Notes: a model not told the origin generated them from the sequence alone. A stretch of DNA of 64,000 nt from Vicinamibacterales bacterium (GCA_048594975.1 JBMDXQ010000085.1:21822-85821); one strand, 5' to 3'; numbered from the stretch's first letter, positions 29,765 through 51,293 are shown. A program made the numbers and translations.

Positions 29765-29765
29765 G

Positions 29766-31896: not shown

Positions 31897-31915
31897 CGAT
31901 CCGGAGGGAAGCCGC

Positions 31916-33679: not shown

Positions 33680-33685
33680 GTCGAG

Positions 33686-34276: not shown

Positions 34277-34285
34277 GCGGCATCG

Positions 34286-34618: not shown

Positions 34619-34815
34619 ACCTCCGATGGTTCCATGCGCTGCTGATCCTCCTGTCCGCGGCCCTCGCCGTGCTGTTCGGCATCTGGTGCCTCGAGTTGTA
34701 CGGACGGGAGGACGGGGCCGCGACGCTGCTCGCGGCCATCGCGGCGTTCGCGGTGTCGCTCGGCCTGGTCATCTACGACTCGTGGTTCCTGCGCAAGACG
34801 AGGACACTGCGATGA
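34615..34815 (+). CDS. Small two-TM protein
   Basis: MNLRWFHALLI...; ATGA overlaps with the genes on both sides. Confidence 0.75.
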   Translation: MNLRWFHALLILLSAALAVLFGIWCLELYGREDGAATLLAAIAAFAVSLGLVIYDSWFLRKTRTLR

Positions 34816-35207
34816 AAGCGCCTGCGGCACGCGCGAGGCGCTGGAAGGAAGCCCGGCGAAGCCGGGCCGCCGAGCGCGACGCGAGCTGGGGTGGGGCCCG
34901 GCGAGCACCAAGAAATGCCGGCTCGTCAGCGCGCCTCAGGATCGGGCGCGCGCTCGTCACGACGGCGACGGCCCTGGTGATCGGCGGCAGTTCGAGCGTC
35001 CTCGCGTGTCCCATGTGCTTCGGCGCGGAGGAGACCTCGATGATCGACGCGACGAAGCTCGGCATCGTGGTCATGCTGGCCATCACGCTTGCGGTCCAGG
35101 GCGGGTTCCTGGCCTTCTTCCTCTATCTCCGCAAGCGCGCGAAGCAGAACGCGGAACTCGAGCTCGACACCGAGTGGTCGAAGCTCCAGAGATCACGGAC
35201 ATGTTGA
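34812..35207 (+). CDS. Small CPxC + TM protein, N-terminus extended by a repeat
   Basis: VLA-CPMCFG then a TM; overlaps the coxB start. Confidence 0.7.
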   Translation: MKAPAARARRWKEARRSRAAERDASWGGARRAPRNAGSSARLRIGRALVTTATALVIGGSSSVLACPMCFGAEETSMIDATKLGIVVMLAITLAVQGGFLAFFLYLRKRAKQNAELELDTEWSKLQRSRTC

Positions 35208-36321: not shown

Positions 36322-37725
36322 CTAGCCGAACATCTTCGGCGTCGGCATCCGCGCGCGGATGCGCTCCAGCTCCTCGACCGTAACTCGGCTGATGCCGTTC
36401 TTGCGGCAGGACTCCTCGACAGCCTTGACGACCATCCCCCGAACGAATGCCGGAATCCTCTTCATCCGCTCGGCCGCCTCATCGTCCCACGCGATCGTCT
36501 TGCGCGATTCCACGCCGTACTCGATGGCGGGAGCCCCCGTCCTCCCTGCCGCGCCTTGGACGGCGAGAACGGGAGAACCGGCGAACTTCCCGGGGGTGTG
36601 CGTGCACAGCGGATCTTCGGCCATCAGGTCGCCGGTCATGCCGTAAGCGCGGGCGCGGCAGCCCCCGCAGTGGGCGTTCATCTCGCACGCCCCGCACCGA
36701 CCGCCGAGCGAGCCGCGGCGGCGAACGTCGGTGAACAGTCGAGAGGAGGTCCACAGGTCCGCCAGCGACGCGCTGCGAAGCGATCCTGCGAACACCGGCA
36801 GGTAGGGGCACGGCGTCACATCCCCATTCGGCCGGATTCCCATGTAGTGCGTTCCCGCCGGACACCCGCCGGCGCCGCCGGAGTAGGTCCTTATCGGCGA
36901 CGACCCGGGCCACGGCGACGAACGCGTCGACCCAGCATCCGTCGTGATCGGATCTGTCCCGACCGCTGAATTCTCCAGAACGGTCTTGATGTAGTGCGGG
37001 GCGCACTTCGCGTTCACGAGCATCCGGCGGTCGTACTTCCGCTGGATCCGGTAGAGAGAGGCGAGGACCTCGTCGTACTGCGCCGGGCTCATGTCGGACA
37101 CGAACTGCCCGCGCCCCGTGGGCACCAGGAAGTAGAGGTTCCAGACCTTCGCCGCCAGGCGCTCGTGGGCGAAATCGGCGATCGCCTCGAGCTCGCCGAG
37201 ATTGTGGGAGCCCGCGGTGGTCTGCACGATGAAGGGCAGCCCGGTCCGGTTCAGGATCTCCGCGCCGTCGACCGTGTTCTGCCAGGCGCCCCGCACCCGG
37301 CGAAAGCGGTCGTGACGCTCGGGATCGAGCGCGTCGAGGGAGAGCGAGAGCCCCCGCGCCCCGGCCTCTGCCAGGCGCGCGGCCACGTGCTCGGTGATGC
37401 GCACGCCGTTGGTGCCGACGACGACCCAGAGTCCACGCTCCGCGGCACGCCGGACGATCTCGAGAATGTCGCGCCGCAGGAGCGGCTCGCCTCCGGTCAG
37501 GATGGTCATGCACTCGGGCGCGAACGCGGCGATTTCGTCGATGACCCTGAAACAGTCGTCGGTGCCGAGCTCGCTGCGATCGGCGAAGTTCTCCGTGCCG
37601 ACCATCGGCGTGCCGCCGGCGTCGAGATAGCAGTGCTCGCAGGCGAGGTTGCAGCGGTAGGTGAGGTTCCAGGAGATCACGTAGGGGCGGGCGAAGGGCG
37701 TCGCGCCGCTCCGCGGGGTGCTCAT
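36322..37725 (-). CDS. Radical SAM/SPASM protein (AhbD/NirJ-like) with a C-terminal PCP_red-like domain
   Basis: WNLTYRCNLACEHCY; TGGEP; CAPHY; CPAG...PCPY...CGAC...CGGCRARAY...DPLC; tail WDDEAAERMKRIPAFVRGMV. Confidence 0.88.
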   Translation of the reverse strand: MSTPRSGATPFARPYVISWNLTYRCNLACEHCYLDAGGTPMVGTENFADRSELGTDDCFRVIDEIAAFAPECMTILTGGEPLLRRDILEIVRRAAERGLWVVVGTNGVRITEHVAARLAEAGARGLSLSLDALDPERHDRFRRVRGAWQNTVDGAEILNRTGLPFIVQTTAGSHNLGELEAIADFAHERLAAKVWNLYFLVPTGRGQFVSDMSPAQYDEVLASLYRIQRKYDRRMLVNAKCAPHYIKTVLENSAVGTDPITTDAGSTRSSPWPGSSPIRTYSGGAGGCPAGTHYMGIRPNGDVTPCPYLPVFAGSLRSASLADLWTSSRLFTDVRRRGSLGGRCGACEMNAHCGGCRARAYGMTGDLMAEDPLCTHTPGKFAGSPVLAVQGAAGRTGAPAIEYGVESRKTIAWDDEAAERMKRIPAFVRGMVVKAVEESCRKNGISRVTVEELERIRARMPTPKMFG

Positions 37726-37809
37726 CTCGGAGACATCCACCGATCCAACCTCCAGCGGCCCCCTGTTCAACTCCCGATTGCCGACTCGCACAACTAAACG
37801 CTGTCGCGC

Positions 37810-38265
37810 CTACATACCAAAGAACTCGCGGGCAGCGTCGAGGATCGTCTCGTCCACTTCCAGCGCCCCACGCTCTCGGGCGAATCGCTCGATGCCGGTC
37901 CGCGCCATCGGCCGGACGAACTCCGGAACCTTCGCGAGCCTCGCTTCCGCGGCGGCGGTCCAGCGCACGGGAATCGGCCCGGAGGCGTTGTCGGGTCGGG
38001 CCTCCGTTTCCGCGATCATCGCCGGGAACGGGCAGCCCGCGCCGGAGGCGCCCGTCGCCCCGGCACCCGCCGCCTGCCCGCCGTTCTCGGGCCCGATCCG
38101 CACGCCGAGCGACTGAACGATCTGGGTCTCGTAGGCGTTGGTGAGCATCGCCATCTCGTAGCCGCACTCCGGGCACGCGTAGACGACCGACAGCGAGCCG
38201 CGATCGGGCGGGCCGACGGTCTGCAGCTTCATCGGCGTGTCGCACGGGATACAGAGGAACTTCAT
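37810..38265 (-). CDS. Zn-ribbon-like + PCP_red-like domain protein
   Basis: CIPC...CPEC, GCPF, tail WTAAAEARLAKVPEFVRPMARTGIERFA. Confidence 0.82.
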   Translation of the reverse strand: MKFLCIPCDTPMKLQTVGPPDRGSLSVVYACPECGYEMAMLTNAYETQIVQSLGVRIGPENGGQAAGAGATGASGAGCPFPAMIAETEARPDNASGPIPVRWTAAAEARLAKVPEFVRPMARTGIERFARERGALEVDETILDAAREFFGM

Positions 38266-39185
38266 TCTGGAGGCTCCCTCTCGGGTCGCAGTTCGCTCAC
38301 AGCATGCGCGGAGGCTGGCGTGGACGCTTCCAGCCCGTCCAGCAATCGCTGTGCGATCTGATCCAGGGCGCGGCCGACCGGCGTTGCATCGTCCTGAAAA
38401 GGGATCCCTTGATCGCAGTGGCGCGCTAGCTCGGGATCGAACGGCACGGTCCCGAGACAGGGGATCCCGAGGTCCAACGGGCGGGACGGGCTGAACAGGG
38501 GTTTGACCGCCTTGCAGTCACGACAGTAGTAGCCGCTCATGTTCTCGACGTAGCCGAGGAGCCGATTCGGGCCCTTCGACACCGCGGCGACCGAGCGCGC
38601 GACCACGCCCCGTGCCACTTCGGAAGGGATCGTCACGAGCAGAAACGAGGTTCGCGGCCCGAGGAAATCGGCGTACTGGACGGTGCGGTCGGCTCCCGGC
38701 GGCAGATCGACCATCAGCAGGTCGAGCGGTCCCCAATCGAAGGACCCGAGGATCTCGCCGAGGAGCGCGAACTCCCTCGTGGCGCGCCACGTATGGGACT
38801 CTCCGCGCGCCGCGCTCTCGAAGTCGAGGGACTCGGACTCCGGGATGAGCGAGCCCATCGAGAACACCCCGAGCCCGTTCCTGGTCCTCGGGAGCGCGAC
38901 TCTCTGTCTGCCGGGCACGAACGGCGTCCTCTCGACGCCTGCCATGCGCGCCTGCGAGGGGCCGTTGAAGTCCGCGTCCAGGATCGCAATCCGCAGGCCG
39001 CGGGCGCGCAGCGCGCCCGCGATGTGCAGCGTCAGAGTGCTTTTGCCCACTCCTCCCTTGCCGGAGCCGACGGCCACCAGATGGCGCACTCTGGCGAGCC
39101 CGTCCGCGATGCGGGCGCGCTGTTCCGCGACCTGCTCGAGGATCCGGGATCCTCCGTCGCCGGAGATGTCGTGGTAGCTCTTCAC
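38262..39185 (-). CDS. mrp: Mrp/NBP35 family P-loop ATPase
   Basis: SGKGGVGKST; LDADFNGPS; DLPPG; ENMSGYYCRDC. Confidence 0.9.
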   Translation of the reverse strand: MKSYHDISGDGGSRILEQVAEQRARIADGLARVRHLVAVGSGKGGVGKSTLTLHIAGALRARGLRIAILDADFNGPSQARMAGVERTPFVPGRQRVALPRTRNGLGVFSMGSLIPESESLDFESAARGESHTWRATREFALLGEILGSFDWGPLDLLMVDLPPGADRTVQYADFLGPRTSFLLVTIPSEVARGVVARSVAAVSKGPNRLLGYVENMSGYYCRDCKAVKPLFSPSRPLDLGIPCLGTVPFDPELARHCDQGIPFQDDATPVGRALDQIAQRLLDGLEASTPASAHAVSELRPEREPPE

Positions 39186-39305
39186 CTTGGTGACGCTCCG
39201 GGGGTGATAGCTTACACCGTCCCGCGCCGGGAGCGGGTGATGTCTCGAACGACAGGACGCGACCAAGGGTGCTCGCTGGAGTAGCTTCTGGAGGGCAATC
39301 GCCCG

Positions 39306-41891
39306 CTACTGTTTCAGACCGACTTTCTCGAGCAGGGCGGTGAAGCGCGGGTGGCCCGCAAGGTCAGCCCACCGTGGCTCAACGGTGAGAAAAGTCAGAA
39401 GCAGGTCCCGTGCTTCGACGGCCTCTCCGAGCCGGTTCAGCGCCTCGTCGTGCTCGCCCAAGCCGAGATGGACGAGCGCAAGGTTCGACGGCGGGACATA
39501 GGCCTGCGCGGCTCTCGTTTTCAGCCGGTCGAGAATCGTGCGGGCCTCTTCTCGCCTCCCGCTGACCGCGAGCGTATAGCCTGCGGTGGCCGTCACCACC
39601 AGGGACCCACCCAGCTCGGTCGCCTTGTCGAACGCCAGGAGCGCCTCCCTATACATCCCCTTCCGTCCGTAAATCCGCCCCATCATGTTGTGCGTAAGCC
39701 ACAGCGCCGGGTCAAGCGGGAGAGTCTTCTGAAGGTGCGTGAGCGACTCGTCGTAGCGCCCTTCGTAATACAGGCACTGCGCGAAGAGGGCGTTGGCCAG
39801 GGCGGAGTGGGGCTCGTAGTCGAGCGCTCGTCTCATCTCCTGCAGTGCACGGGTGTGATCGCCGAGGTTCGAGAACAGGTGTCCGTAAAAGGTGTGCGCG
39901 GCCGGGTCCGGCCGATCGGACGCAATCGCGCGCCTGAACTCCTCCTCGGCGCCGCTCCAGTCCCAGTCGAACCAGAACTTGATGATGCCCATGGACACTC
40001 GCGCTTCCGAGAGACCGGGATCGATGGCGAGTGCGCGCTCAGCAGCGGTTCTCGCGTGCGGGAACGACTCCTTGGGCGCAACATCGCTCGTCATCGCCCG
40101 CAGAATGTACGCCTCGGCCAGCTTCGCGTAGGCCCGTCCGTAGCCCGGATCCAGCGTCACGGCCTCGCGAAGGTACTCGAGCCCTTTCCGTAGGTCACCC
40201 GGCGTGCGCCTCTGCACGTGGTATCGCCCCTTCGCGTACAGCTGATAGGCGGCAGGGAGTCTGGTGTCGTCGCCGCTGGCAAGCAGGGGCCGCGACGAGA
40301 AACCGAGCGCCTCCACGAGTTCGCGGGCGATCTCGGTCTGCAGCGTCAGGAGGTCACCGATCGGCCTGACGAACTGCCGCTTCCACAACCCCGTCCCGTC
40401 GGCGCTGCGCAGGAGTTCCAGCCGGACGATGACGGTATCAGCGCGGCGTTCGAGAGTCCCCGTCAGGACGGTGGCGACGCGCATCTCACGGCCGGCCTGT
40501 GCGGGTGACACGCCGAGCCGCTCGTAGCGGGCGGCCTCGCTCGCGGCTGCCTGACGGATGGAGGACACCTGCGCAAGCCGGCTTCGCAACGAGGCAGCGA
40601 TGCCGTCGGCCAGGTACTCGCCGTCGCGGATTTCCCCTGCGTTGTCGAGCGGCAAGACACCGATCGACGTAATGGCGGGAGTTTCGCGGCCGCGTCCCGC
40701 CACTGTCGCGAGATATGCCGTCGCCGAGACGACAACAAGCGCTGCGGCGCCGAGCCACGACAGCGTGCGCAGGGTTCCGAAGCGAGGGCGTCCGGCCCGC
40801 CCGCTGACCCTGGCGCCATCCCCGGGTAGATTCTCGAGCACGCGACGCAGCACGCGCAGATCGCGGACCAGGTCACTGCTCGTCGCGTAGCGATCCGCGC
40901 GATCGTGCGACAGCGCGCGAGTGACAATCGGCGCGAGCTCCGGCGCAAGGTGGGCGAGCTCGTCGAGCGCAGGCCGGCTTGCAGTCCCTAGCGGTCGCTC
41001 CCGTTCCGCGTTTGCGGCCGCTGGCGGCAGATGCCCGGTTGCCATCTCGTAGATGACAATTCCGAGACTCCACACGTCCGTGCGGGCATCGACGGTGAGA
41101 CCCTGGCGCTGCTCGGGAGACATGTACCCGGTCGTGCCGATCACCGTGCCTTCGGGTCCGGTGGATCCGGTCGGAGCGAGCGGATGTTCGCCACCTGTCC
41201 TCGTGGCGATGCCGAAGTCGAGGATCTTCACCAGGCCGTCGGCGCGCAGCATGACGTTGTCCGGCTTGATGTCGCGATGCACCACGCCCGCCTCGTGCGC
41301 CGCCGCCAGGCCCTCGGCGATCTGGAACGCGATGTTCACCACCTCGGGTGCGGGGATGGGTCCCTGCTTCAACCGCTCGCGCAACGTGATCCCGTCGGCG
41401 TAATCAGCTGCGATGAACCTCGTGCCCTTGTGCTCGCCGATCTCGTAGATCGTCACGATGTTGGGGTGGTTCAGGGCCGACGCCGCGAGCGCCTCGTGCC
41501 GGAAGGCCGCAATCCACTCCGAGTCCGCCAGATCCGGCCGCAGCACCTTCAGGGCGACGTTGCGCCCCAGCCTGGAATCGCGTGCGAGGTAGACGTCGCC
41601 CATGCCGCCGGCGCCAAGCGGGCGCAGGATCGCGTACGAACCAATCGTGCGCGGGATTCTGCGCGGTTCGCCTTCATCCGCCTCGGCGAGGGCGCGAGCT
41701 GCCAACTCCACGGCCGAGTGCTCCACGAACGCAGCCGACCGCTCGTCGTACTTCAGCAGCGCCTCGATCTCCTCGACGAGCTCGACATCGGCGTCGGCTT
41801 CGCTGCGAACGAACGCCGTCCTTTCGCACGCCGGCAACTCCAGCGCCGCGTGATAGATCCGTTCGATTCGAGTCCAGCGGTCGACAGTCAT
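39306..41891 (-). CDS. Ser/Thr protein kinase with TolB-like and TPR domains
   Basis: GAGGMGDVY, VALKVL, HRDIKPDN, DFG, YMSPEQ; SIGVLPL; C-terminal TPR-like repeats. Confidence 0.95.
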   Translation of the reverse strand: MTVDRWTRIERIYHAALELPACERTAFVRSEADADVELVEEIEALLKYDERSAAFVEHSAVELAARALAEADEGEPRRIPRTIGSYAILRPLGAGGMGDVYLARDSRLGRNVALKVLRPDLADSEWIAAFRHEALAASALNHPNIVTIYEIGEHKGTRFIAADYADGITLRERLKQGPIPAPEVVNIAFQIAEGLAAAHEAGVVHRDIKPDNVMLRADGLVKILDFGIATRTGGEHPLAPTGSTGPEGTVIGTTGYMSPEQRQGLTVDARTDVWSLGIVIYEMATGHLPPAAANAERERPLGTASRPALDELAHLAPELAPIVTRALSHDRADRYATSSDLVRDLRVLRRVLENLPGDGARVSGRAGRPRFGTLRTLSWLGAAALVVVSATAYLATVAGRGRETPAITSIGVLPLDNAGEIRDGEYLADGIAASLRSRLAQVSSIRQAAASEAARYERLGVSPAQAGREMRVATVLTGTLERRADTVIVRLELLRSADGTGLWKRQFVRPIGDLLTLQTEIARELVEALGFSSRPLLASGDDTRLPAAYQLYAKGRYHVQRRTPGDLRKGLEYLREAVTLDPGYGRAYAKLAEAYILRAMTSDVAPKESFPHARTAAERALAIDPGLSEARVSMGIIKFWFDWDWSGAEEEFRRAIASDRPDPAAHTFYGHLFSNLGDHTRALQEMRRALDYEPHSALANALFAQCLYYEGRYDESLTHLQKTLPLDPALWLTHNMMGRIYGRKGMYREALLAFDKATELGGSLVVTATAGYTLAVSGRREEARTILDRLKTRAAQAYVPPSNLALVHLGLGEHDEALNRLGEAVEARDLLLTFLTVEPRWADLAGHPRFTALLEKVGLKQ

Positions 41892-42466
41892 CCGGACTTG
41901 TTCTCAGTGAGCCATCGCAGCAACCACGACTTGGCCAGGCGGCAGTCCCGCTTCAGCGTCTCGGCCGAGACGCCGAGCACGAGCGCGGCCTCGTCAATCG
42001 ACAGACCGCCGAAGAACCGCAGCTCGATGGCCCGGCTCTTTCGCTCATCGACTTCCGCGAGCGCATTCAGCGCGTCGTCCAGCGCGACGAGGTCCTCGTC
42101 CGGCGCGTTCGCGACGAGCAGCGCCTCGTCGAGCGGAACCCGACGGTCCCCGCCGCCGCGCTTCCGGTATCCCTTTTCGCGGGCGAAATCCACCAGTACC
42201 CGGCGCATGATTCTCGCCGAGATGCCGAAGAAGTGCGCGCGATTCTGCCAGTCGATGCTTCGTGCGTCCACCAGCCGGATGTAAGCCTCGTGAATGAGCG
42301 CGGTCGTCTGGAGCGTGTGGCCAGCTCGCTCGCGGTGCATGTACCGCCTGGCCAGGCGATGCAATTCAGCGTGAACCAGGGGCACGAGCCGATCGAGGGC
42401 ACCGGGTTCGCCCGCGCTCCAGGCCTGGAGCAATGCCGTCACCCTGGGTGAGGTTCGCGTCCGCAC
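41888..42466 (-). CDS. ECF sigma factor (kinase-associated, TIGR02999-like)
   Basis: VTALLQAW...HTLQTTALIHEAY...RAHFF...LRFFGGLS; stop overlaps the kinase start. Confidence 0.92.
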   Translation of the reverse strand: MRTRTSPRVTALLQAWSAGEPGALDRLVPLVHAELHRLARRYMHRERAGHTLQTTALIHEAYIRLVDARSIDWQNRAHFFGISARIMRRVLVDFAREKGYRKRGGGDRRVPLDEALLVANAPDEDLVALDDALNALAEVDERKSRAIELRFFGGLSIDEAALVLGVSAETLKRDCRLAKSWLLRWLTENKSG

Positions 42467-42517
42467 GGCCCGCTTCGATGCGGATTATAGCGGTCGCACC
42501 ATGGGACCGGTCGGACC

Positions 42518-42568
42518 GGGGTCAGATCTCGATCTCCTGAACCCTTTCGAAGCTTGAGGTCTGGCCCC
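42518..42568. repeat. GGGGTCAGA...TCTGGCCCC palindromic repeat
   Basis: GGGGTCAGATCTCGA / TTGAGGTCTGGCCCC imperfect IR; all three mismatches are G-U compatible. Confidence 0.55.
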
Positions 42569-42659
42569 AGAGCAACTCGCCGGGTTACCCGTTTGTCGGC
42601 GAATTCCCGCATTCACTCCCTACAAGGTACCGGCCGCGAGCGACCGGGAGGAGGAGACA

Positions 42660-43142
42660 GTGCGAGGAATTACGAAATTCGTGTTCACTAGCGCGCGCAC
42701 GATTGGGGTGAGTGCTCTGGTTGTGGCCGCGGTCGCGGCGGGTATACTAGCTGCGGGTTGCAGCCGGGCTCCGGCCAGTCCGACGGCCCCCGCCGCGCAC
42801 CCCACCGGCACGGCGGCGGCCACCGCTCAGGGCACGAGTCAAAGCTGGCAGGACTTTCAGGCGCACGGATGGAACTGCCGAACGCCGGGGGGCGGCCCCG
42901 TGACCGTGTGCAGCCCGCCGGGCCAGCCCCTTCCGACACCCGCGTTTCCACCTGATGAGCCGCCCGACGATCGGCCCCCTACCGTCATGTTGAAGCGATG
43001 GCGGGATGGCGTCTTCGAGGCGAACGTTCTGTTGATCAGGCCCGAACTCTACAACGGCCAACTCTGCGAGCCTACGGATGAGCCGTATGTCTGGGCCGCG
43101 GTGCTTGGGTACTTCGAGTGCGCCCATCCAGCCGAGAAGTGA
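42660..43142 (+). CDS. Hypothetical lipoprotein
   Basis: SD GGAGGAGG; lipobox ILAAG-C; four further Cys residues. Confidence 0.75.
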   Translation: MRGITKFVFTSARTIGVSALVVAAVAAGILAAGCSRAPASPTAPAAHPTGTAAATAQGTSQSWQDFQAHGWNCRTPGGGPVTVCSPPGQPLPTPAFPPDEPPDDRPPTVMLKRWRDGVFEANVLLIRPELYNGQLCEPTDEPYVWAAVLGYFECAHPAEK

Positions 43143-43194
43143 AATCCAATCTGATGGGAAGAGCGACAGGCCGAGCTGTCGCTCTCCCGCGCTC

Positions 43195-44061
43195 CTATGC
43201 CGCCTGTGCGGTTGCCGCATAGAGCAGATGACGGGCGGCGGGTCGGAACCCGAGGGCCTCGAGAGACGCGGCTGGGATCTCGGCCGGATGCACCTTCGGG
43301 AACCGAAAGATCCCCTTGCCGAGTCGAGAAACCAGGAGCTTCAGTCTGGCTCCCCCGTCCTCGACGACCGAACGGAGTCCCACAATCCCTGGGCCCGGGT
43401 CGGAGCGTCCACTTATGTAGAGGATGAACGCCTCAATTCGTTCATCGGAAGCGACGGCGAGGCCGGCGATGTCGCCCTTCCTGGCCGCGAAGGTCTCGGC
43501 CGAGCGCTCCCAGGCCGCCTGTGAATGTGCCTCCCGGAGCAGATCGTTGGCGGCGAGGTCCTCAACCGTGACAGGGATCACGAACCGGGCAGCGGCCGAA
43601 CTGAAGTTCGGCCCTACGTCATCCAACGCGGCACGCTCCAGGACGTAGTCGGTGAGGACGGCTTCCTGAACGTATCCACAGGCCTCGAACAGTCCGCAGG
43701 CGGCAACGAACGCCTCGGGGACCTCGGCAACGATGCGGGTTGGGCCAAGAATCGCCAGCTTCGACCCGAGCGAGGCGAGCAGGTGACGGGCATGACCCTG
43801 CCGCAGGTGATCCGGATGGACGGCGATCTTGTGAACGAGAGTAGCTGAAGGCCGCTTCGCGCCGATCAGAACGCCGATCGGATCGCTGCCCGAAAAGGCG
43901 ACCATGCAGCTGCTGCACCAGACCTGCAGGTCGCGGATCGACCGTTTGAACGAGGCGGGCGTCTCGCGCGGTTGGTCGGGAAAGTACGGCGCCCAGCAGC
44001 GGTTCAGCGCCTCGACGAGCAGCCCGATGTCGTCCGTGCGGCAGAAGCGGTAAGCAGACAC
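43195..44061 (-). CDS. GNAT family acetyltransferase
   Basis: IAVHPDHLRQGHARHL (acetyl-CoA motif A); LFEACGY; a second GNAT-like half ending LEALGF. Confidence 0.8.
   Translation of the reverse strand: MSAYRFCRTDDIGLLVEALNRCWAPYFPDQPRETPASFKRSIRDLQVWCSSCMVAFSGSDPIGVLIGAKRPSATLVHKIAVHPDHLRQGHARHLLASLGSKLAILGPTRIVAEVPEAFVAACGLFEACGYVQEAVLTDYVLERAALDDVGPNFSSAAARFVIPVTVEDLAANDLLREAHSQAAWERSAETFAARKGDIAGLAVASDERIEAFILYISGRSDPGPGIVGLRSVVEDGGARLKLLVSRLGKGIFRFPKVHPAEIPAASLEALGFRPAARHLLYAATAQAA
43594..43617 (-). repeat. GTAG-type REP palindrome inside the GNAT CDS
   Basis: GTAG-GGCCGAAC-TTCA-GTTCGGCC, encoding VGPNFSSA. Confidence 0.75.
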
Positions 44062-44067
44062 GTGAAA

Positions 44068-44095
44068 ACGTGCGACGTGCGACGTGCGGCGTGCT
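44068..44095. repeat. Heptamer tandem repeat (ACGTGCG)x4
   Basis: acgtgcg acgtgcg acgtgcg gcgtgct between the USP and GNAT genes. Confidence 0.7.
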
Positions 44096-46121
44096 ACGCG
44101 TCGCTTCGCGGAGTGAGCGGGCTCACCTCGTTGAGATAGCCCCGTCCATTCCCGCCGGACGTCGCGGGCGCCGCCGAGACTGCCGCCGATGGACTCGCGC
44201 CCGGCCCGGAGTAGGTCGCAATCATCTCGGCCATCATCGTCTTGCCGATCTCGATGCCCTCCTCGACGAGCGCAAGGTCGATAGCCGCCGCGGCGCGCTC
44301 CCGAGCGAGCTCCTCGATCCGCTCTTGCGTCTTGCTGCGCATGAAACCGGCCGGCACGCGGAAGATCCGCTGCGCGGCCTCGTCCGTCCAGTCGAACGTC
44401 GAGATCAACGGGTTCTTTCGATCGTCGCGGGCGACGAGGCGCGCCTCGCTTCCGGCGCTGGTGCCCGCCTCCGCCACGGCCGCGGCGGGACTGAAGTCCC
44501 GCCCTACGACCGACGGGGCTTTGATGTCCAGCGCCGCCCCCGTCTCCTCCTCGATCACCTGCCGGGCGAAGTCGAGCGTAATCGCGTCCATCTTCATCAT
44601 CCGCGCGCGCTTTTCGACGCGCGCCTTGACGCGACGGCGCTGATAGGCGTTCTTCATGGTCCAGAGGCCCTTGCGAGCCTCCTCCGACCAGCGGAGCTTT
44701 CGGCCGTCGTACGTGGTCTCCTCCTGGAGACCGCCCTCCACCGCCGCGATCTTCTCGATCATCTCCTGCGAGATCACCTCGAAGTCCGTGCCGCCGCAGA
44801 CCGTGCACTTCACGGCGCCGCTCTGCGTGGCCGCGACGCCGCACGAACGGCACAGCGACACCGGGCCGGACTTCGCCCGCTCGAGCGCCACCGCCTCGGC
44901 CAACGCCTTCGTCGCGGAAGACGCGCTCTTCGGCATGAACCGATCCATCGCTTCATCGATTACCGCGCTCGTGACCACCGAATGCCCCTTCTCGAGCGCC
45001 AGTCGAAGGACCCCGGTACGGGCGATCCCCTTGACCTGATCGGGCACGTGCTTCATGCGCTCCTCGGCCTCGGGCGTCCATCGCACGGTCTCTTCGGCGC
45101 GCACGTCGAGCCGCGGCACCGCGAGGCGCGTGGAGAGCAGCACATCGCAGGGCGCGGCGCGGAGGATGTTCTCCACGTTGCTCCCCAGCCCCGTCTCGTC
45201 CGACGGGCTGTGCACGCCGATGCGCCCCAGCACGATCAGCCACGGGTTCGTCTTGCGCGCGTGGTCGAGGATCTTCTGGAAGGGCTTGCCGTCGAGGAGC
45301 GTCTTCGTGATCGCGACGCCCGCCTCGCTCGCCATCCGCTCGCCGACCTCGAGGTGCGACTGGTAGATCTGCGCGAGCCCGGTGTCGATGATCTCCTCGT
45401 GGAGCTGGTTCTGCTCTTCGAAGCGGAAGACCTTCGCCGCCTGCTCGGTGAGGACGTTGACGATGCCGTTGAAGACCGAGTAGTGGAGGTAGGGATCGTA
45501 CACGGCGATTGCCTCGACCTTCTTGCCGAAGGTGCGCGCCAGGTCGAGGGCGGTCATGAGCGCGCCGAACGACTGCGGGCTGCCGTCGACGCCGACCAGG
45601 ATCGTCTCCCGCTCCGGCTCGCCCGCCTCCGGCACGTGCTTGACGACCCAGACGTCGCGGTCGGCCTGGCGGGCGACGCGCTCGCACACCGAGCCGATGA
45701 CGCTGTCACGCGCGCGCCCGATCCCCAGCGCGCCGATCACCACCAGGTCGTGCGGCGAGCGAGACAGGTCCTTGAGGATTTCGACGTGATGCTTGCCGTC
45801 CATCATCCGCGGTTCGAACTGGAGTCCCGACTCGTTGCAGAGGCGCGACATGCCATCGAGGTAACTGTCGGAGATCAGCTTGAGGCCCATCGTGATGAGG
45901 CTGTCGTGGATCTTCCGCTGGCGCTCCAGTTCCACCTCGTCGATGTACTCCTCGGGCAGGGTGTACTCCATCTGCCGGAAGCGGTAGTCGTGCAGTCTGG
46001 CGGCATAGACATGGCACCCGACGAGCTTCGCGGAGTACGCCTTGCCCAGCCCCACGGCGCAGGCGATCGCTCGATTGGAGTGCTCCGAGTTGTCGACGGG
46101 AACGTAGATGCTCTTGTACAT
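44094..46121 (-). CDS. Tandem universal stress protein fused to a Zn-ribbon and three PCP_red-like domains
   Basis: MYKSIYVPVDNS...GSVCERV; ILVGVDGS...GSNVENI...PCDVL; CRSC..CTVC; three W-x2-EA helical repeats. Confidence 0.88.
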   Translation of the reverse strand: MYKSIYVPVDNSEHSNRAIACAVGLGKAYSAKLVGCHVYAARLHDYRFRQMEYTLPEEYIDEVELERQRKIHDSLITMGLKLISDSYLDGMSRLCNESGLQFEPRMMDGKHHVEILKDLSRSPHDLVVIGALGIGRARDSVIGSVCERVARQADRDVWVVKHVPEAGEPERETILVGVDGSPQSFGALMTALDLARTFGKKVEAIAVYDPYLHYSVFNGIVNVLTEQAAKVFRFEEQNQLHEEIIDTGLAQIYQSHLEVGERMASEAGVAITKTLLDGKPFQKILDHARKTNPWLIVLGRIGVHSPSDETGLGSNVENILRAAPCDVLLSTRLAVPRLDVRAEETVRWTPEAEERMKHVPDQVKGIARTGVLRLALEKGHSVVTSAVIDEAMDRFMPKSASSATKALAEAVALERAKSGPVSLCRSCGVAATQSGAVKCTVCGGTDFEVISQEMIEKIAAVEGGLQEETTYDGRKLRWSEEARKGLWTMKNAYQRRRVKARVEKRARMMKMDAITLDFARQVIEEETGAALDIKAPSVVGRDFSPAAAVAEAGTSAGSEARLVARDDRKNPLISTFDWTDEAAQRIFRVPAGFMRSKTQERIEELARERAAAAIDLALVEEGIEIGKTMMAEMIATYSGPGASPSAAVSAAPATSGGNGRGYLNEVSPLTPRSDA
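44484..44507 (-). repeat. GTAG-type REP palindrome inside the USP CDS
   Basis: GTAG-GGCGGGAC-TTCA-GTCCCGCC, encoding VGRDFSPA. Confidence 0.75.
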
Positions 46122-46298: not shown

Positions 46299-48032
46299 TC
46301 ACACGCTCGTGGCCGGCTGCTGTCTCTGTTCACTGCCCGGTTCCTCGCGGCGTCGAGCGGCGTACCGCCACCGGACCCAGCCGATCAGCGCCAGTTCGAT
46401 GAACAGAATGACGAGCGCGATCCTGATCATCGGGCCGACGGCGGATGGCACCACCTCCGGCTCCATGTAGAGCGAGTACCAGAGGGTGAGACCTCGCCGG
46501 TTGCCACGCTCGCGCGACCAGCCGTCCCAGACCGAGAAGGCGATGGGCATGAACTGTCCGGCGGTGAACGCCGCGCCCGACGGGCTGCGCAGAGGCCGCT
46601 TGAAGATGACCGCCCACTCTCCCTGGTCGTAGCTCGCGAGACCGGTGAGGTCCCCAGTGTCGTTCGCCGCGATATCCGCGCTTCCCCGTCCCGTGAACTG
46701 AAGGGGAGCGGGGCGTGCGAGATCGAAGAACCACAGGTCCACGGAGTTCTGCTGGTCACCGAAGATGAAGTAGGGCTTGCGCGCGCCGCTCGGCACCTGC
46801 GAGGGGATCTGGATCGCCACCGCGTCGGAGAAATCGGACGGCGGGGCGGCCGGGGCGGCCGCCGGGTCCGCGAAGGGATCCTGCGCAAATGGATCCTGCG
46901 CCTGGGCCGGGGCGGGTGCGGCTGCCGCTTCGCCCCAGACGCTCGCCTCGTCGCCGGCCGCGCCCGGAGCGGTTCCCTGCGGCTTCGCCGCCTCCTCCTC
47001 CGGCGGCACCGGCAGCGTCAGCCCGTTCTTTCCCGCTTTCTCCGCGGCCATGTCGTGCCATCGCACGAGCAACGCGATGGACTCGGCGTCGTAGATGGCC
47101 TGAACGGTCACGGAGGTCGCGGGCGGATGGAACGAGCGGCCCGGCTCCATGATCTGCCCGACGATGGGGAAGCGGGCCACGGGCGCGGACTGGAAGTTCG
47201 CCGCCCCCTTCGCCAGATCGATCGGGTCCAGGACATGCCTGGCGATCACGAGGTTCGTGTAACCGGGCCCGTTGCTCCCCGAGAGCGAGACGATGAAATC
47301 GGTGATCGCCCATCGCTGCTCGGGCGTCAGGCCCTCCAGGAACGACGGCATCGGCGTCCCGTTGAACCCCGTGCTCATTGTCCGGAAGATGTCCTCGCGG
47401 GACGATCCTCCCCGGAAGGTCCAGCGCTGCGACAGGTCGGCCGGCCGTATCGGGTAGCCCCAGTCGTCCTTCAGCGTCGGCGCCGATGGCCCGTCGCCCC
47501 GACCGAGCGTGCCGTGGCAGCGCACGCAGCCGCTCTCATCGTAGAGCTTCTTCCCCTGCTCGACGGTCTCGTTGGTCGCGTTCGGCGCGCTGGGGAGCGG
47601 CACCGGTGGGGGGACGTTCTCGGGGTTCGAGAAGTCGGGGAAGAACGTCTTGATGTAGTAGGCGAGATTCGACACGTCCTGGTCGGAAAGGCTGGGCCAG
47701 GCGGGCATGGAGGTGTAGGGCATCCCGCGTCTGATGATGTTCAGGAGATCCTGGTGAGTCGGGAGCGCTCCGTTGGGCGTCGAGCGGACCTTGAACTTGC
47801 CGGTCGTGAAGTTGCGCGGCCTGGGGAGCAGGTGCGGTGCGGCATAGCCCTCGCCGTCCCCTTTCTCGCCGTGGCACTGCGCGCAGTACTTCAGGTAGAG
47901 CGCCTTCCCCGACTCCCGCTGCGCTTCGGTGCCGAGGTCGGGACCCTGCCCGCGCGCCACTCCCATCGTCGTGACAGACCACGCGGCGATGAGCACCGCG
48001 ACACAGCTGCGCGAGACCAGGCGAGCGGTCAT
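46299..48032 (-). CDS. Diheme cytochrome c + ethylbenzene-dehydrogenase gamma-like (DOMON) domain + C-terminal TM
   Basis: CAQCH, CVRCH, PRPRNFT, GTPMP; DAVAIQIP, WAVIFKRPL, IAFSVWDG. Confidence 0.85.
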   Translation of the reverse strand: MTARLVSRSCVAVLIAAWSVTTMGVARGQGPDLGTEAQRESGKALYLKYCAQCHGEKGDGEGYAAPHLLPRPRNFTTGKFKVRSTPNGALPTHQDLLNIIRRGMPYTSMPAWPSLSDQDVSNLAYYIKTFFPDFSNPENVPPPVPLPSAPNATNETVEQGKKLYDESGCVRCHGTLGRGDGPSAPTLKDDWGYPIRPADLSQRWTFRGGSSREDIFRTMSTGFNGTPMPSFLEGLTPEQRWAITDFIVSLSGSNGPGYTNLVIARHVLDPIDLAKGAANFQSAPVARFPIVGQIMEPGRSFHPPATSVTVQAIYDAESIALLVRWHDMAAEKAGKNGLTLPVPPEEEAAKPQGTAPGAAGDEASVWGEAAAAPAPAQAQDPFAQDPFADPAAAPAAPPSDFSDAVAIQIPSQVPSGARKPYFIFGDQQNSVDLWFFDLARPAPLQFTGRGSADIAANDTGDLTGLASYDQGEWAVIFKRPLRSPSGAAFTAGQFMPIAFSVWDGWSRERGNRRGLTLWYSLYMEPEVVPSAVGPMIRIALVILFIELALIGWVRWRYAARRREEPGSEQRQQPATSV

Positions 48033-48847
48033 TGGTGCGCGACCGCTTCCCGGGCGCGAGGCTTCTGGCCGGTGAAATCGTAGAGGAAGAGGATCGCGTC
48101 CCAGATCTCCTCCTCCTTCAGGAACTTCTCCCAGGCGGGCATGGCGGTGTCCCACGGGCCCCCTTCCTCGGGAAGCCCGGGCCCCCCCTTGGAGATCCGC
48201 CAGAACAGGAACGTATCGCGGAGATTCGCGATCGTGGCGCCGTCGGCGAAGTTGGTCGGAATCGGATCCAGGCCGTGCACGAACATGCCATTGCCGGACA
48301 GGTCGTCGCCGTGGCAGAAGACGCAGTTCTGGTAGTAGACGCGGCGGCCGTTCTCGACGTGCCTGCGGTACTCCGTCGGATCCGATCCCTCGAGCGGCAG
48401 GTACGGGTTCTCGCCGGCGTCGAGGTCGATCTTCTTGTCGTGAACGGTGATGGCGGACGGGGATGCGGGATGGACCGTCCGCGAGAAGAACGGGGGCTGG
48501 ACCGGGACGTTCATCTGGAAGTACACGTTCGCCGCCGCCAGCGCCGGAATGGCGACGACCGTCGCGCCGAGCAGCACCGTATACCGCCGGTCCGTCATGA
48601 ACCGGACGAGCGGCCCGGCGACTTCCTCGCGGCGCGCCTCGCTGGAGGACACGTACGCCAGGATCGCTATCGTGGCGATTCCCATGTAGATCGAGATGAC
48701 GGACGCGGGGATCGGGGCCGTGAACCCGAATCGGAGCAGGACGTAGATCCCCGCCCACCAGGCGAATGCCCAGATCAGCAGGTTGGCCCGGCGGAGGCGA
48801 AGGAGCCCGAACGCAGCGGCAACGGCAAGGACGACGGCGATCTTCAT
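48029..48847 (-). CDS. Membrane-anchored monoheme cytochrome c
   Basis: Three to four N-terminal TMs; CVFCH; PTNF; TAMPAW. Confidence 0.88.
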   Translation of the reverse strand: MKIAVVLAVAAAFGLLRLRRANLLIWAFAWWAGIYVLLRFGFTAPIPASVISIYMGIATIAILAYVSSSEARREEVAGPLVRFMTDRRYTVLLGATVVAIPALAAANVYFQMNVPVQPPFFSRTVHPASPSAITVHDKKIDLDAGENPYLPLEGSDPTEYRRHVENGRRVYYQNCVFCHGDDLSGNGMFVHGLDPIPTNFADGATIANLRDTFLFWRISKGGPGLPEEGGPWDTAMPAWEKFLKEEEIWDAILFLYDFTGQKPRAREAVAHQ

Positions 48848-49386
48848 GGTTTCGGCGCGCCCTCCTTTTTGGGAGTGGTCGGAGCCGGCGCTACGCCCGG
48901 CGCGCCGGCGAGATAACGATGGGCCGACTGGAGCGTCACCGTCGGCGTGCCGCCAAGCGTCTGCAGGTATGCGATCACGCAGAGGATCTCCTGATCGGTG
49001 AGGCCGATCGGAGGCTTGTTGATGGGGGGCATCCCAGGGTTGAATCCCTCGACGATGTAGCTGTCGGGTTCGTACATCGATTGAGCGAGGTAATCGATGT
49101 CGCTCAGGCCCGGGACGCGGCTGCCCGCCCGGGCGCCGATCCCGTCGAGGTCGGGAAACCGGAGCGCGCCGGACTTGCCGATCGTGTGGCAGGTCAGGCA
49201 GAGCCCCTTGCCCTCCATGATCCCGCGGCCGACCTTGACCATGTCGGCCGTGGACAGATCGCTGGCGAGGACGGTTTCCTGGGGAGGCAGCACCTCTTTC
49301 TGCGGCACCATCTGCCCGACATAGGTATAGAACGCGGTGGTCACCAGCACGAGAGCGCCGATCCGCGCCGTGTGCGGGATGGTCAT
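48844..49386 (-). CDS. Monoheme cytochrome c
   Basis: N-terminal anchor; CLTCH; YLAQSMYEP...GMP. Confidence 0.88.
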   Translation of the reverse strand: MTIPHTARIGALVLVTTAFYTYVGQMVPQKEVLPPQETVLASDLSTADMVKVGRGIMEGKGLCLTCHTIGKSGALRFPDLDGIGARAGSRVPGLSDIDYLAQSMYEPDSYIVEGFNPGMPPINKPPIGLTDQEILCVIAYLQTLGGTPTVTLQSAHRYLAGAPGVAPAPTTPKKEGAPKP

Positions 49387-51293
49387 GCGGTCCTCTCCGC
49401 CTCACTCACGTCGGTGAGCAGCGGCGTACTGCGCTCCTCAGGGCTGGGCCGCCGGTAGTCCGGCCGCTCGTGCAGGCTCGTGATCCAGAACACGAAGCCA
49501 ATCAGGCCGAAGAACAAGAGCACGGTCACCGAGACGACCTGCGTCGCAAAGCCGAGCGTGGGCGTGAACGCGTCCGGCGAGGTGTCGCGGACGACCCCGT
49601 AGACGTGCCAGTGCTGCCGGAGCCCGGACCGGACGTAGCCCATGAGCCCCATGAGCCAGGTGAACGTGACCGCGATGAAAATCAGCACGTATTGCGAGAT
49701 CGCGGGGATCCTCCCCCAGCGGACCTCGCCGGTCTTCCGGGCGCCGCGGAAGAGGAAGATGTCGATGACGGTGATCGACACCATCGCGAGCAGAACCGAG
49801 AGGACCTGCGGCACCGAGAGCCCGATCCGGACCGTCGCCTCGACGAAGTACCCGTAGACGCCGAGGAAGATGACGATCACTGCCGCGCCCGCGAAGATCG
49901 CGAGCTGCGCCGTATGGCCCATCTTCGCCCACGCCACCGTCGCGATCTTGCCCGTCCGGCGGTAGAGGAGGAAGCTCATGAAGGTGGTCAGGATGAGGAT
50001 GTTCACGGCGGTGTTCTTCGCCGACATCACGCCGAGGAACCCCAGGACCGGGTGCGACGACCCGCCCATCGCCCGGACTTCGGACACCGTCGCGATGATC
50101 GATCGCGGGGTTGCCCAGACCGCGAAGCAGACCGCGATCCCGACGAGCAGGTACTTGATGAACCGCTGAACGGGCTGCGCGCCCTCGACCCGGCCCATGC
50201 CGAGCCAGAGGTAGTAGTTGGCCGCGAGGAAGAGATTCCCGATCAGCACGGCCTGGATGATGAAGAGCCAGGAGAAGGCGCCGCCCATCATCGTCAGCCC
50301 GAGCGTCTGCGAGTACGCGTAGATCTCTTTCGCGAGCCAGTAGCCGGCGAAGGGGAGCGGGAGGAACGCGAGGATGGCGACGAAGTTGCCGATGTACCCC
50401 ATCCAGTCGTAGTGGGCGCGCTCCTCGTCGGTCTTCGCCTGCAGGAACTTGAACGCCGCGTAGGCGGCGGCCACCGATCCGCCGAAGGCGACGTTGGCAA
50501 TGAGGCGATGGACGTTGATGGGCATCCAGGTGAAGTTGGTGACCGCCTCCATGACATCGAGCACGGCTCCCGAATCCGAGATGCCGCGCGGCGACATCAT
50601 GAACGTGAGCCAGGCGTTGGCGATGAACATGATCCCCGTCCCGACGACGTTCAGCCCGAGCCCCAGGCCCAGATGCACCAGTGGATGGAACTTCCCCCAG
50701 CCGTAGTAGTAGGCGTAGAGGAAGAAGGCCTCGAAGAAGAACAGCAGCACGTAGGGCAGAAACGTGGGGGAGAACACGCTCATCAGGTAGTTCGTGAACT
50801 TCGGATACAGGATGATGAGCATGAAGGTCAGGAAGGCGCCGAAGGTCGCGGTCAACGAGAACGAAACCGAGAGGAGCTTGGTGAACTCGTACGCGAGCCG
50901 GTCGTATCGCAGCTCGCCGGTCTTGTAGCCGATGACCTCGATGATGAACGCGAACATCGGGACCGCCAGGACGAAGGCCGCGAACAGCAGGTGGAGCTGC
51001 GCGACCGCCCAGACGGCCACCCGGCTCCCGACCATCGGGAATCTCCGGTATTCGGCCTCCTGGTAGGGCGTGGCGCGGGCCGTCCTCTCGGCGTCTGCCT
51101 GCTCGGCGGCGAGTCCCTCGGCGCGCGGCGTCGGATCGCCGGCGGCCGCCGGAGCCCGGTAGGGTGCCCGGTATTCGCGGCTGACCACCACCGAGACCAT
51201 CTTCACCGTCGCGGCGAACATCACGATGGCCGCGACCGGGCCGAGCAGGATCAGCAGCTTGCGGTTCATCAGGCCGTTCATCAGCCCGTTCAT
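49383..51293 (-). CDS. Cytochrome bd-like oxidase subunit I (CydA-related, no cydB partner)
   Basis: Many TMs; QLHLLF (CydA His19-like), FFEAFFLYAY, IANAWLTFMMSP, NVHRL (His186-like), MGYVRSGLRQHWHVY where CydA has GW..E.GRQPW. Confidence 0.82.
   Translation of the reverse strand: MNGLMNGLMNRKLLILLGPVAAIVMFAATVKMVSVVVSREYRAPYRAPAAAGDPTPRAEGLAAEQADAERTARATPYQEAEYRRFPMVGSRVAVWAVAQLHLLFAAFVLAVPMFAFIIEVIGYKTGELRYDRLAYEFTKLLSVSFSLTATFGAFLTFMLIILYPKFTNYLMSVFSPTFLPYVLLFFFEAFFLYAYYYGWGKFHPLVHLGLGLGLNVVGTGIMFIANAWLTFMMSPRGISDSGAVLDVMEAVTNFTWMPINVHRLIANVAFGGSVAAAYAAFKFLQAKTDEERAHYDWMGYIGNFVAILAFLPLPFAGYWLAKEIYAYSQTLGLTMMGGAFSWLFIIQAVLIGNLFLAANYYLWLGMGRVEGAQPVQRFIKYLLVGIAVCFAVWATPRSIIATVSEVRAMGGSSHPVLGFLGVMSAKNTAVNILILTTFMSFLLYRRTGKIATVAWAKMGHTAQLAIFAGAAVIVIFLGVYGYFVEATVRIGLSVPQVLSVLLAMVSITVIDIFLFRGARKTGEVRWGRIPAISQYVLIFIAVTFTWLMGLMGYVRSGLRQHWHVYGVVRDTSPDAFTPTLGFATQVVSVTVLLFFGLIGFVFWITSLHERPDYRRPSPEERSTPLLTDVSEAERTA

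Follow-up and report, generated by a model that had tools for sequence, protein, structure and literature searches.

PCP_red domains on three proteins encoded beside a bd-like oxidase of a Vicinamibacterales bacterium: a candidate haem maturation module

Five PCP_red-like domains are spread over three proteins encoded in a respiratory operon of a Vicinamibacterales bacterium. The operon lies in a stretch of 64,000 nt (GCA_048594975.1 JBMDXQ010000085.1:21822-85821), which we call the window and within which all positions are counted. The three proteins are a radical S-adenosylmethionine (SAM) enzyme with a SPASM domain, a 151 amino acid (aa) protein with a four-cysteine (Cys4) ribbon, and a tandem universal stress protein (USP). 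The same operon encodes a CydA-like subunit of a bd-like oxidase, putatively of the OR-N type, and a P-loop ATPase of the Mrp/NBP35 type, referred to as Mrp in this text (Table 1). On balance, we favour the view that the PCP_red proteins form a dedicated module for haem maturation or delivery that belongs to the oxidase operon.

PCP_red (Pfam PF08369, gathering cut-off 32.5 bits) is the C-terminal domain of BchB/ChlB, the B subunit of DPOR, the dark-operative protochlorophyllide oxidoreductase. A first-pass annotation of this DNA had read five PCP_red-like segments on the radical SAM enzyme, the 151-aa protein and, three times, the USP, and had proposed a scan with the Pfam profile. All five were found at the expected positions on the minus strand, and four of them passed the cut-off: those of the 151-aa protein (57.1 bits, alignment over aa 102-146), of the radical SAM enzyme (48.0 bits, aa 435-478) and the first and third repeats of the USP (40.1 and 37.8 bits). 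The middle USP repeat (LRWSEEARKGL...), which had already been called the most divergent, had the lowest score and failed (19.4 bits, E 0.0011, profile positions 1-42 of 45 aligned). We compared the USP repeats with hhalign, using sub-alignments drawn from 24 family members. Repeat 2 matched repeat 1 with a probability of 96.9% (E 2e-10) and repeat 3 with 98.9% (E 3.8e-17), while repeats 1 and 3 matched each other with 98.3%. Judged by this profile-profile comparison, repeat 2 is homologous to the PCP_red repeats on either side of it. Its invariant residues are W478, A482, E503, K504 and A506.

In the AlphaFold2 models, the three USP repeats and the C-terminus of the radical SAM enzyme (four modelled domains) have a strand-helix-helix-strand-helix arrangement in common. 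The mean pLDDT was 75.7 for the USP and 79.0 for the radical SAM enzyme (pTM 0.79), with values of 78-93 in the PCP_red stretch of the latter. When the whole models were submitted to Foldseek, all neighbours were USPs or radical SAM proteins, and the small domains were not picked out. The sequence of the 151-aa protein matches solved ChlB/BchB chains at their C-terminus (2ynm_D, E 2.8e-7) as well as two stand-alone NMR structures, 2kru and 2l09 (the 'Asr4154 protein'). These mini-proteins indicate that the domain folds on its own, but they differ from the proteins studied here in having no ribbon, no Cys-Pro-Phe (CPF) linker and no oxidase context.

When all 163 contigs of the genome (7.2 Mb) were scanned in six frames, four PF08369 matches emerged at E<=0.01. 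All of them are located here, and the clustering of PCP_red at this locus is therefore not due to chance. The scan revealed no BchB-type match anywhere in the 7.2 Mb, in agreement with the earlier statement that photosynthesis genes are missing from the window. The domains at this locus resemble the C-terminal domain of BchB/ChlB (2ynm_D, 2xdq_B, 3aek_B) in matching the same hidden Markov model (HMM) and in sharing the motif W-x2-EA...R(V/I)P-x-F(V/M)R. They differ in lacking an Oxidored_nitro body, in having neither BchN nor BchL encoded in the genome region, and in their placement on a radical SAM enzyme, on a ribbon protein and in tandem on a USP. Pfam finds no Oxidored_nitro match on any of the three proteins, and BchB profiles match only their last ~55-60 residues (40.9-44.1 bits against cut-offs of 490-509). 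With a profile match confined to the C-terminus and no nitrogenase-like body, identity as a DPOR subunit is ruled out.

The PCP_red proteins occur together with the oxidase. An even sample of 151 genomes from the phylum of this bacterium contained a CydA-like protein (E<=1e-20) in 8 genomes, PCP_red in 9 and the USP form in 7. Each of the 8 genomes with the oxidase also has PCP_red, either on that same contig or on one nearby (7/7 without the unpublished genome G049), and the ninth PCP_red genome encodes a lone 91-aa PCP_red protein. A second phylum was represented by an anaerobe-rich sample of 201 genomes. A strong CydA-like match (E<=1e-135) was obtained for 14 of these, and each of the 14 has PCP_red in frames whose size suits a USP or a radical SAM enzyme. 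The carrier types were partly deduced from frame length; Pfam or tblastn confirmed them in 11 of these 14 genomes. PCP_red was found in 65 of the 201 genomes altogether, and one genome (G457) has a PCP_red frame of USP or radical SAM enzyme size without a strong CydA-like match. A third sample of 151 genomes (Verrucomicrobiota) contained the oxidase in the seed genome only. The genomes within these phylum samples are related and thus do not represent independent cases. The phylogenetic profile against bd-like oxidases that had been suggested as a check accordingly shows co-occurrence in 8/8 and 14/14 genomes of two phylum samples.

Gene order is conserved as well. Seven loci from six genomes of the bacterium's own phylum were inspected. 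In two of them, the genes for the CydA-like protein, three cytochromes c, the USP, a GNAT acetyltransferase, Mrp, the ribbon protein and the radical SAM enzyme are contiguous, while some others have this order broken up between contigs or drawn out. The form in genome G106 is reduced: its USP bears a single PCP_red and the radical SAM enzyme comes directly after it, with neither Mrp nor the ribbon protein. A scan of one genome per species identified at least 539 USP relatives, and we examined the loci of the best 80. These span Acidobacteriota (Vicinamibacteria, Thermoanaerobaculia, Polarisedimenticolia, Holophagales), Verrucomicrobiota, Myxococcota, Thermodesulfobacteriota and others. Among these 80, the CydA-like gene and all three cytochrome c genes lie upstream in 62 of the 64 loci with at least 5.5 kb of upstream sequence. 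Mrp and the ribbon protein are found downstream in 50 of the 63 loci with at least 7 kb on that side, accompanied by the radical SAM enzyme in 46 of the 63. In all four genomes of other phyla that were scanned, every PCP_red match (4 each) falls within this locus. Two loci of the second phylum sample (L125 and L126) show overlapping genes for USP-PCP_red and radical SAM-PCP_red beside a cytochrome c-EB_dh gene and a CydA-like gene, again with no Mrp and no ribbon protein. The earlier proposal that the radical SAM enzyme, Mrp and the USP act as one functional unit with the oxidase cluster is thus well in line with co-occurrence (8/8 and 14/14) and synteny (62/64 and 50/63).

The match of the CydA-like protein to PF01654 is limited to profile positions 2-241 of 418, and a crude count gives ~12-14 hydrophobic segments. 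The OR-N family of the cytochrome bd superfamily is described in the available text of a preprint by Murali, Gennis and Hemp (Murali et al., 10.1101/2021.01.16.426971) as being without the quinol site and encoded in operons with alternative electron donors. Our protein shares with it the profile match confined to the N-terminal part and the operon with alternative electron-donor modules, here ActAB-like proteins and cytochromes c. Going by these features, it is a candidate member of the OR-N family, for which a CydA homologue that keeps the N-terminal haem/oxygen-site helices would be expected. A difference is that the main text of the preprint contains the terms 'radical SAM' and 'universal stress' 0 times each. 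A limited literature search found no work that connects bd-like oxidases with PCP_red, with AhbD-like enzymes or with USPs.

The radical SAM enzyme combines a Radical_SAM domain (87.7 bits) and a SPASM domain (36.4 bits) with its PCP_red. Its best NCBIfam match is AhbD (TIGR04545, 291 bits over positions 1-339 of 339), followed by NirJ2 (277.5 bits) and TIGR04053 (260 bits); the equivalog cut-off of the AhbD profile is 500 bits. The cysteines of the CxxxCxxC motif (C47, C51, C54) are invariant in 25 homologues, as are the SPASM cysteines C310, C328, C366, C369, C375, C378 and C396 in the 25 sequences. Structural neighbours of the model include PqqE, SkfB, SuiB and anSME. From its profile matches and cysteines, we classify the protein as an AhbD/NirJ2-like member of the radical SAM/SPASM superfamily. 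No other gene of this genome is strongly AhbD-like; the runner-up scores 93 bits. AhbD, the haem b synthase, and NirJ2 belong to the sirohaem-dependent pathways that lead to haem and haem d1. According to the available text of PMC7242693, AhbC, AhbD and NirJ work on the side chains of iron tetrapyrroles, and AhbD can stand in for ChdC, finishing the coproporphyrin pathway. The haem-related role suggested in the first-pass annotation fits such an enzyme. The window protein matches the full AhbD profile and keeps both cysteine sets, but differs from AhbD and NirJ2 in its additional C-terminal PCP_red and in being linked with the operon of a bd-like oxidase, not with ahbABC. AhbD or NirJ2 is also the best match for 8/8 PCP_red-bearing radical SAM enzymes of the second phylum sample, which score 234-346 bits; this suggests that the PCP_red-bearing AhbD-like enzymes form a separate subfamily. 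We rejected a housekeeping AhbD as the sole reading, since the gene, traced via PCP_red, is absent in 143 of the 151 genomes of the own-phylum sample.

The 151-aa protein consists of the N-terminal Cys4 ribbon, a linker of variable length with the CPF motif, and the C-terminal PCP_red. Invariant in 22 homologues are C5, C8, C31, C34 and the pair C78-P79. A search restricted to proteins of near length yielded 6070 homologues at E<=0.001, and 120 of them were fetched. The ribbon is kept in 119 and CP(F/V) is present between ribbon and PCP_red in all 120. CP motifs are described in the available text of PMC10377097 as transient haem sites in flexible loops, which makes the CPF motif of the linker a candidate haem regulatory-type site.

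The stop codon of the Mrp gene overlaps the start of the gene for the ribbon protein (ATGA), and this common coordinate recurs across many loci. Mrp is an Mrp/NBP35-family (PF10609) P-loop ATPase with a C-terminal CxxC, and Fe-S binding is predicted. Across 22 homologues, the Walker A motif GKGGVGKS and C248 do not vary, and at least 90% of these proteins retain C251. It is like the Mrp/NBP35/ApbC carriers in its PF10609 match (172 bits), its deviant Walker A and the C-terminal CxxC. However, it stays below the equivalog cut-offs for MrpORP (157.8 vs 450 bits) and ApbC (99 vs 348 bits), and its gene overlaps a PCP_red gene.

This overlap is one of several observations that would suit PCP_red as a pure protein-protein assembly tag, which would dock to the Mrp dimer or pair with itself and would join the radical SAM enzyme, the ribbon protein and the USP without touching a tetrapyrrole. 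The domain is common to three proteins of one operon, and its copy number varies from 1 to 5 in the USPs. One natural fusion is a candidate as well: P0401 (457 aa, from a cluster of 5) appears to join Mrp, ribbon and PCP_red cleanly and in frame. However, the search of longer proteins that yielded it returned 108 proteins, and of the five inspected the other four carry frameshifted Mrp C-termini, probably caused by assembly indels. Natural fusions are thus weak proof of Mrp binding.

Complex modelling against Mrp had also been proposed, and the combination of the Mrp dimer with the 151-aa protein was run. It scored 0.43 compared to 0.00 for the best of three controls, which was rated as weak support. 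Three runs share at least 79% of their contacts and the pLDDT of the partner is at least 68; no interface was reported, and the score does not distinguish contact by PCP_red from contact by the ribbon. In the calibration, 58 of 80 solved complexes attained the mark, as did 2 of 110 mismatched pairs. Among those at the mark, scores of 0.60 or less belong to only 7 of the 80 solved complexes, plus both mismatches that passed, and 0.43 lies in a range where predictions are wrong more often than they are right. The Mrp docking tag of the first-pass annotation thus gains weak support. Its premise that PCP_red contacts the ATPase subunit in DPOR could not be confirmed either: the available text of PMC12022308 states that the L-protein, BchL, contacts BchB, a point in favour of a tag, but it does not name the domain. 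No role of the PCP_red part of BchB is described in the DPOR literature searched. Mrp is not supported as a general partner of the domain: the minimal systems (G106, L125, L126) have PCP_red on the USP and on the radical SAM enzyme without Mrp or the ribbon protein. Mrp is likewise missing beside PCP_red carriers of the ChuW and NIR_SIR types (see below) in the loci read. In view of these data, a mere assembly tag seems rather doubtful to us.

The partners to which PCP_red is fused in other genomes give a further indication of its role. The 29 best-scoring frames of the second phylum sample (seed excluded) comprise 16 small proteins with NIR_SIR and Fer4-type domains, 8 radical SAM/SPASM enzymes, 1 USP and 4 proteins without another Pfam domain. 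Sixteen further frames, chosen for lower scores and different lengths, include 4 MFS transporters, 4 NIR_SIR proteins, and 2 each of nitrogenase-like proteins (Oxidored_nitro), radical SAM enzymes with an N-terminal PCP_red, DUF169 proteins and USPs. Many proteins of the second phylum are ~270 aa long and have an N-terminal PCP_red followed by NIR_SIR with a ferredoxin insert; a ~240-aa Fer4 protein comes next (L127:6546-8071, L128:6204-7729). One of three such PCP_red-NIR_SIR proteins scored weakly as sulfite reductase subunit C. The MFS and DUF169 carriers (L130, L132, L133 and L134; L136 and L137) have PCP_red at the C-terminus.

In the third sample, two Verrucomicrobiota genomes without the oxidase have a ChuW/HutW protein with PCP_red at its N-terminus, and both proteins pass the curated cut-off of that family (410.7 and 424.8 bits against 400). 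This anaerobic haem-degrading radical SAM methyltransferase is a second haem-acting radical SAM family that bears the domain in some genomes. It differs from the system described here in the N-terminal position of PCP_red, in having a flavodoxin gene as neighbour and no oxidase, and in being HemN-like instead of SPASM. The flavodoxin gene abuts the PCP_red-ChuW/HutW gene in both cases (L092:8506-10577, L093:7221-9566), and one of the two also lies near a gene for a TonB-dependent receptor. Apart from PCP_red clusters, a protein-atlas search returned only one Nitrospirota cluster that combines PCP_red and a rubredoxin-type domain (score 0.80), which is a lead only. In summary, most partners of PCP_red are enzymes that hold a metallo-tetrapyrrole beside Fe-S clusters, while the MFS and DUF169 proteins do not fit this description.

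The same fusions could be explained if PCP_red brings electron donors of low potential to Fe-S enzymes. The ribbons would then be rubredoxin-like carriers, and Mrp would be the ATP-driven reductase of the radical SAM cluster, much as BchL feeds BchNB. All enzymatic partners (BchB-like, NIR_SIR with Fer4, AhbD-like and ChuW-like radical SAM enzymes) are Fe-S enzymes that need reduction. The flavodoxin genes abutting PCP_red-ChuW/HutW and the rubredoxin-type cluster of Nitrospirota also agree with this explanation, as do the CxxC kept by Mrp and the Cys4 ribbons that precede PCP_red in the 151-aa protein and the USP. However, MFS, DUF169 and USP proteins are not known as redox enzymes, the metal of the ribbons may be iron or zinc, and the minimal systems manage without Mrp and the ribbon protein. 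We also know of no precedent for an Mrp/NBP35 protein acting as reductase of radical SAM enzymes. Electron-donor docking as the function of the domain therefore appears unlikely.

The USP is composed of two Usp domains (137.6 bits in two stretches), followed by PCP_red, a Cys4 ribbon and two further PCP_red domains. Its predicted fold resembles the tandem USPs Rv2623 and ATP-bound TTHA0350 in Foldseek searches. Domain 1 keeps G-x2-G-x9-G-S (G130, G133 and G143-S144, read from the sequence), and we take G-x2-G-x9-G-(S/T) to be the nucleotide-binding motif of ATP-binding USPs. We therefore assign the protein, from domains, fold and motif, as a tandem USP of the ATP-binding type. Among 8000 candidates scored, 1802 were homologues, one of them encoded by Luteitalea pratensis. 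The number of PCP_red repeats in the family ranges from 1 to 5, and longer relatives combine five repeats with extra ribbons. Each Usp domain holds a long helical insert (residues ~40-97 and ~209-266) that is among the most conserved parts and unusual for USPs; its invariant residues include D209, P210, H213, Y214, F217, Q237, H241, E242 and D246. In 5 of 24 aligned members (P0251, P0257, P0263, P0324, P0364), the linkers between repeats contain CP(V/I)xH outside the Cys4 ribbons; no such motif is present in the USP of the window. The CP(V/I)xH of these longer relatives resembles haem regulatory motifs. At least one homologue (P0118) is named protochlorophyllide reductase subunit B in its public record, a misannotation driven by the small domain, and some homologues are named 'rubrerythrin' by one source. 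The combination of USP and PCP_red in archaea was remarked on as an odd automatic annotation in a 2025 paper (PMC12159084, available text).

The GNAT gene lies directly downstream of the USP gene in 62 of the 63 loci with at least 7 kb of downstream sequence. A pairing of USP and acetyltransferase recalls the cAMP-regulated acetylation of a USP in mycobacteria. It is conceivable that the block is regulatory and not biosynthetic: a nucleotide-sensing USP, maybe acetylated by the GNAT protein, would tune the oxidase during hypoxia or stress, with PCP_red as sensor and unrelated chemistry for the radical SAM enzyme. The nucleotide-binding motif in USP domain 1, the fold matches to ATP-binding tandem USPs and the conserved GNAT neighbour are in keeping with regulation. 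USPs rise under low oxygen in Nitrospira marina (PMC8115632, available text), and in the present genome genes for an ECF sigma factor and a Ser/Thr kinase are inserted into the block. Nevertheless, we regard regulation as very improbable, for it leaves unexplained why the block should conserve both an AhbD-family enzyme and an Fe-S carrier ATPase, why the radical SAM enzyme itself bears PCP_red, and why the USP and radical SAM genes overlap in minimal systems. The sigma factor and kinase genes are not members of the system. A pair of this kind between the GNAT and Mrp genes was seen in 0/80 one-per-species loci and 0/7 loci of the own-phylum sample, and it is therefore an insertion specific to this genome, outside the conserved module.

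Most plausibly, then, the accessory block serves cofactor maturation of the oxidase complex, with haem as the likeliest cofactor. We prefer haem maturation because of an enzyme of the AhbC/AhbD/NirJ group, the tetrapyrrole enzymes among the partners of PCP_red and the Cys-Pro motif in the ribbon protein. We propose that the ancestral order was ActA-like, ActB-like, CydA-like and three cytochromes c (the last with a haem-b EB_dh domain), followed by the USP with 1-5 PCP_red, GNAT, Mrp/NBP35, the Cys4-ribbon-CPF-PCP_red protein and the AhbD-like radical SAM enzyme with PCP_red. The AhbD-like enzyme would alter side chains of an iron tetrapyrrole independently of oxygen, most likely turning coprohaem into haem b and less likely yielding a modified haem, and its Fe-S clusters may come from Mrp. 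The tetrapyrrole or the enzyme could be held, handed over or gated by the ribbon protein and the USP, with the PCP_red modules as the common tetrapyrrole-handling or assembly element. In this scheme, we infer the substrate, the binding of haem by PCP_red or the CPF motif, the physical assembly and the oxidase as client. For PCP_red itself, tetrapyrrole handling, protein assembly and electron-donor recruitment each fit parts of the data.

Several observations weigh against a haem maturation module. The radical SAM enzyme scores 291 bits where the AhbD cut-off is 500, and its reaction may therefore differ from that of AhbD. The genome also contains a ChdC-like gene (45.8 bits, partial match), so that a second coprohaem decarboxylase is not strictly required; the radical SAM enzyme may therefore be an oxygen-independent alternative or make a product other than haem b. 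MFS transporters (4/16) and DUF169 proteins (2/16) carry PCP_red without a known tetrapyrrole link, and since the enzyme partners are all Fe-S enzymes in need of low-potential electrons, the fusions fit reductant docking equally well. In BchB, helix 398-420 contacts protochlorophyllide in trans, and this helix lies upstream of PCP_red (PMC12022308, available text). The trio of Mrp, ribbon protein and radical SAM enzyme is not found within 10 kb of the USP in 13 of the 63 loci. Finally, the client could be the haem-b domain EB_dh or the ActB-like Fe-S protein and not the CydA-like subunit. A more far-reaching version of the haem reading would make PCP_red a portable tetrapyrrole-handling module and the operon an unrecognised oxygen-independent machine that synthesizes and inserts the active-site haem of OR-N oxidases, possibly a modified one. 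Here, Mrp and a rubredoxin-like carrier would feed the radical SAM enzyme, and the USP with its several PCP_red domains would act as a buffer. We give this version only a small chance of being correct.

The window has a G+C content of 68% and is rich in respiratory genes, with three terminal-oxidase systems within 64 kb. Two of these are sets of alternative complex III and cytochrome oxidase genes: ActA-F-like genes and a caa3-type oxidase with SCO1 occupy positions 9493-22621, and an ActD-like gene with a second COX1/COX3/COX4/COX2 set follows at 29138-36007. The genes discussed here form the third respiratory set, which runs on the minus strand from 55774 down to 36322. It begins with the genes for the ActA-like, ActB-like and CydA-like proteins, two cytochromes c, the dihaem cytochrome c-EB_dh protein and the USP, and continues with those for GNAT, the ECF sigma factor, the kinase with its TPR repeats, Mrp, the 151-aa protein and the radical SAM enzyme. 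A plus-strand open reading frame at 42660-43142 (160 aa, hydrophobic N-terminus) adjoins the sigma factor and kinase genes.

Table 1. Genes and domains of the third respiratory gene set (positions within the window; aa, residues of the encoded protein)
Feature	Position	Strand	Details
ActA-like multihaem cytochrome	55124-55774	-	heads operon; tblastn synteny
ActB-like Fe-S protein	51984-55580	-	tblastn synteny
CydA-like subunit of bd-like (putatively OR-N-type) oxidase	49383..51293	-	PF01654 82.4 bits
Two cytochrome c genes	48029..49386 (~48029-48847 and ~48844-49386)	-	
Dihaem cytochrome c fused to EB_dh (haem b) domain	46299..48032	-	start approximate; Cytochrom_C 84.4 bits, EB_dh 55.2 bits
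Tandem USP gene	44094..46121	-	675 aa; Usp 137.6 bits, PCP_red 73.9 bits
PCP_red 3/5, USP repeat 1	44937..45086	-	aa 346-395
Cys4 ribbon inside USP	44796..44852	-	aa 424-442; weak HypA-like match, 19.5 bits
PCP_red 4/5, USP repeat 2 (divergent)	44541..44696	-	aa 476-527
PCP_red 5/5, USP repeat 3	44232..44396	-	aa 576-630
GNAT acetyltransferase	43195..44061	-	GTG start at 44061; Acetyltransf_1 34.5 bits
ECF sigma factor	41888-42466	-	Pfam
Ser/Thr kinase-TPR	39306-41891	-	Pfam
Mrp/NBP35-type P-loop ATPase	38262..39185	-	GTG start; PF10609 172.3 bits
151-aa Cys4-ribbon/PCP_red protein	37810..38265	-	PCP_red 57.1 bits
Cys4 (CxxC...CxxC) ribbon of 151-aa protein	38164..38253	-	
Cys-Pro-Phe linker motif of 151-aa protein	38026..38034	-	candidate transient haem-binding (CP) motif
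PCP_red 2/5, 151-aa protein	37816..37968	-	aa 100-150
Radical SAM/SPASM enzyme with C-terminal PCP_red	36322..37791	-	likely start ATG at 37725
PCP_red 1/5, radical SAM enzyme C-terminus	36346..36495	-	aa 433-482

Bd-like oxidases of the OR-N family occur widely among nitrite oxidisers and among bacteria of soil and sediment, yet they are biochemically uncharacterised. The co-inherited accessory block provides concrete candidates for the supply of their cofactors, and co-expressing it could be a route to expressing these oxidases. PCP_red is recast from the tail of a chlorophyll enzyme to a module that recurs on tetrapyrrole and Fe-S enzymes of non-phototrophic bacteria. If the operon does encode a haem machine, it would provide a biosynthetic handle on the cofactors of OR-N oxidases and a function for a domain that has so far been tied only to chlorophyll synthesis.

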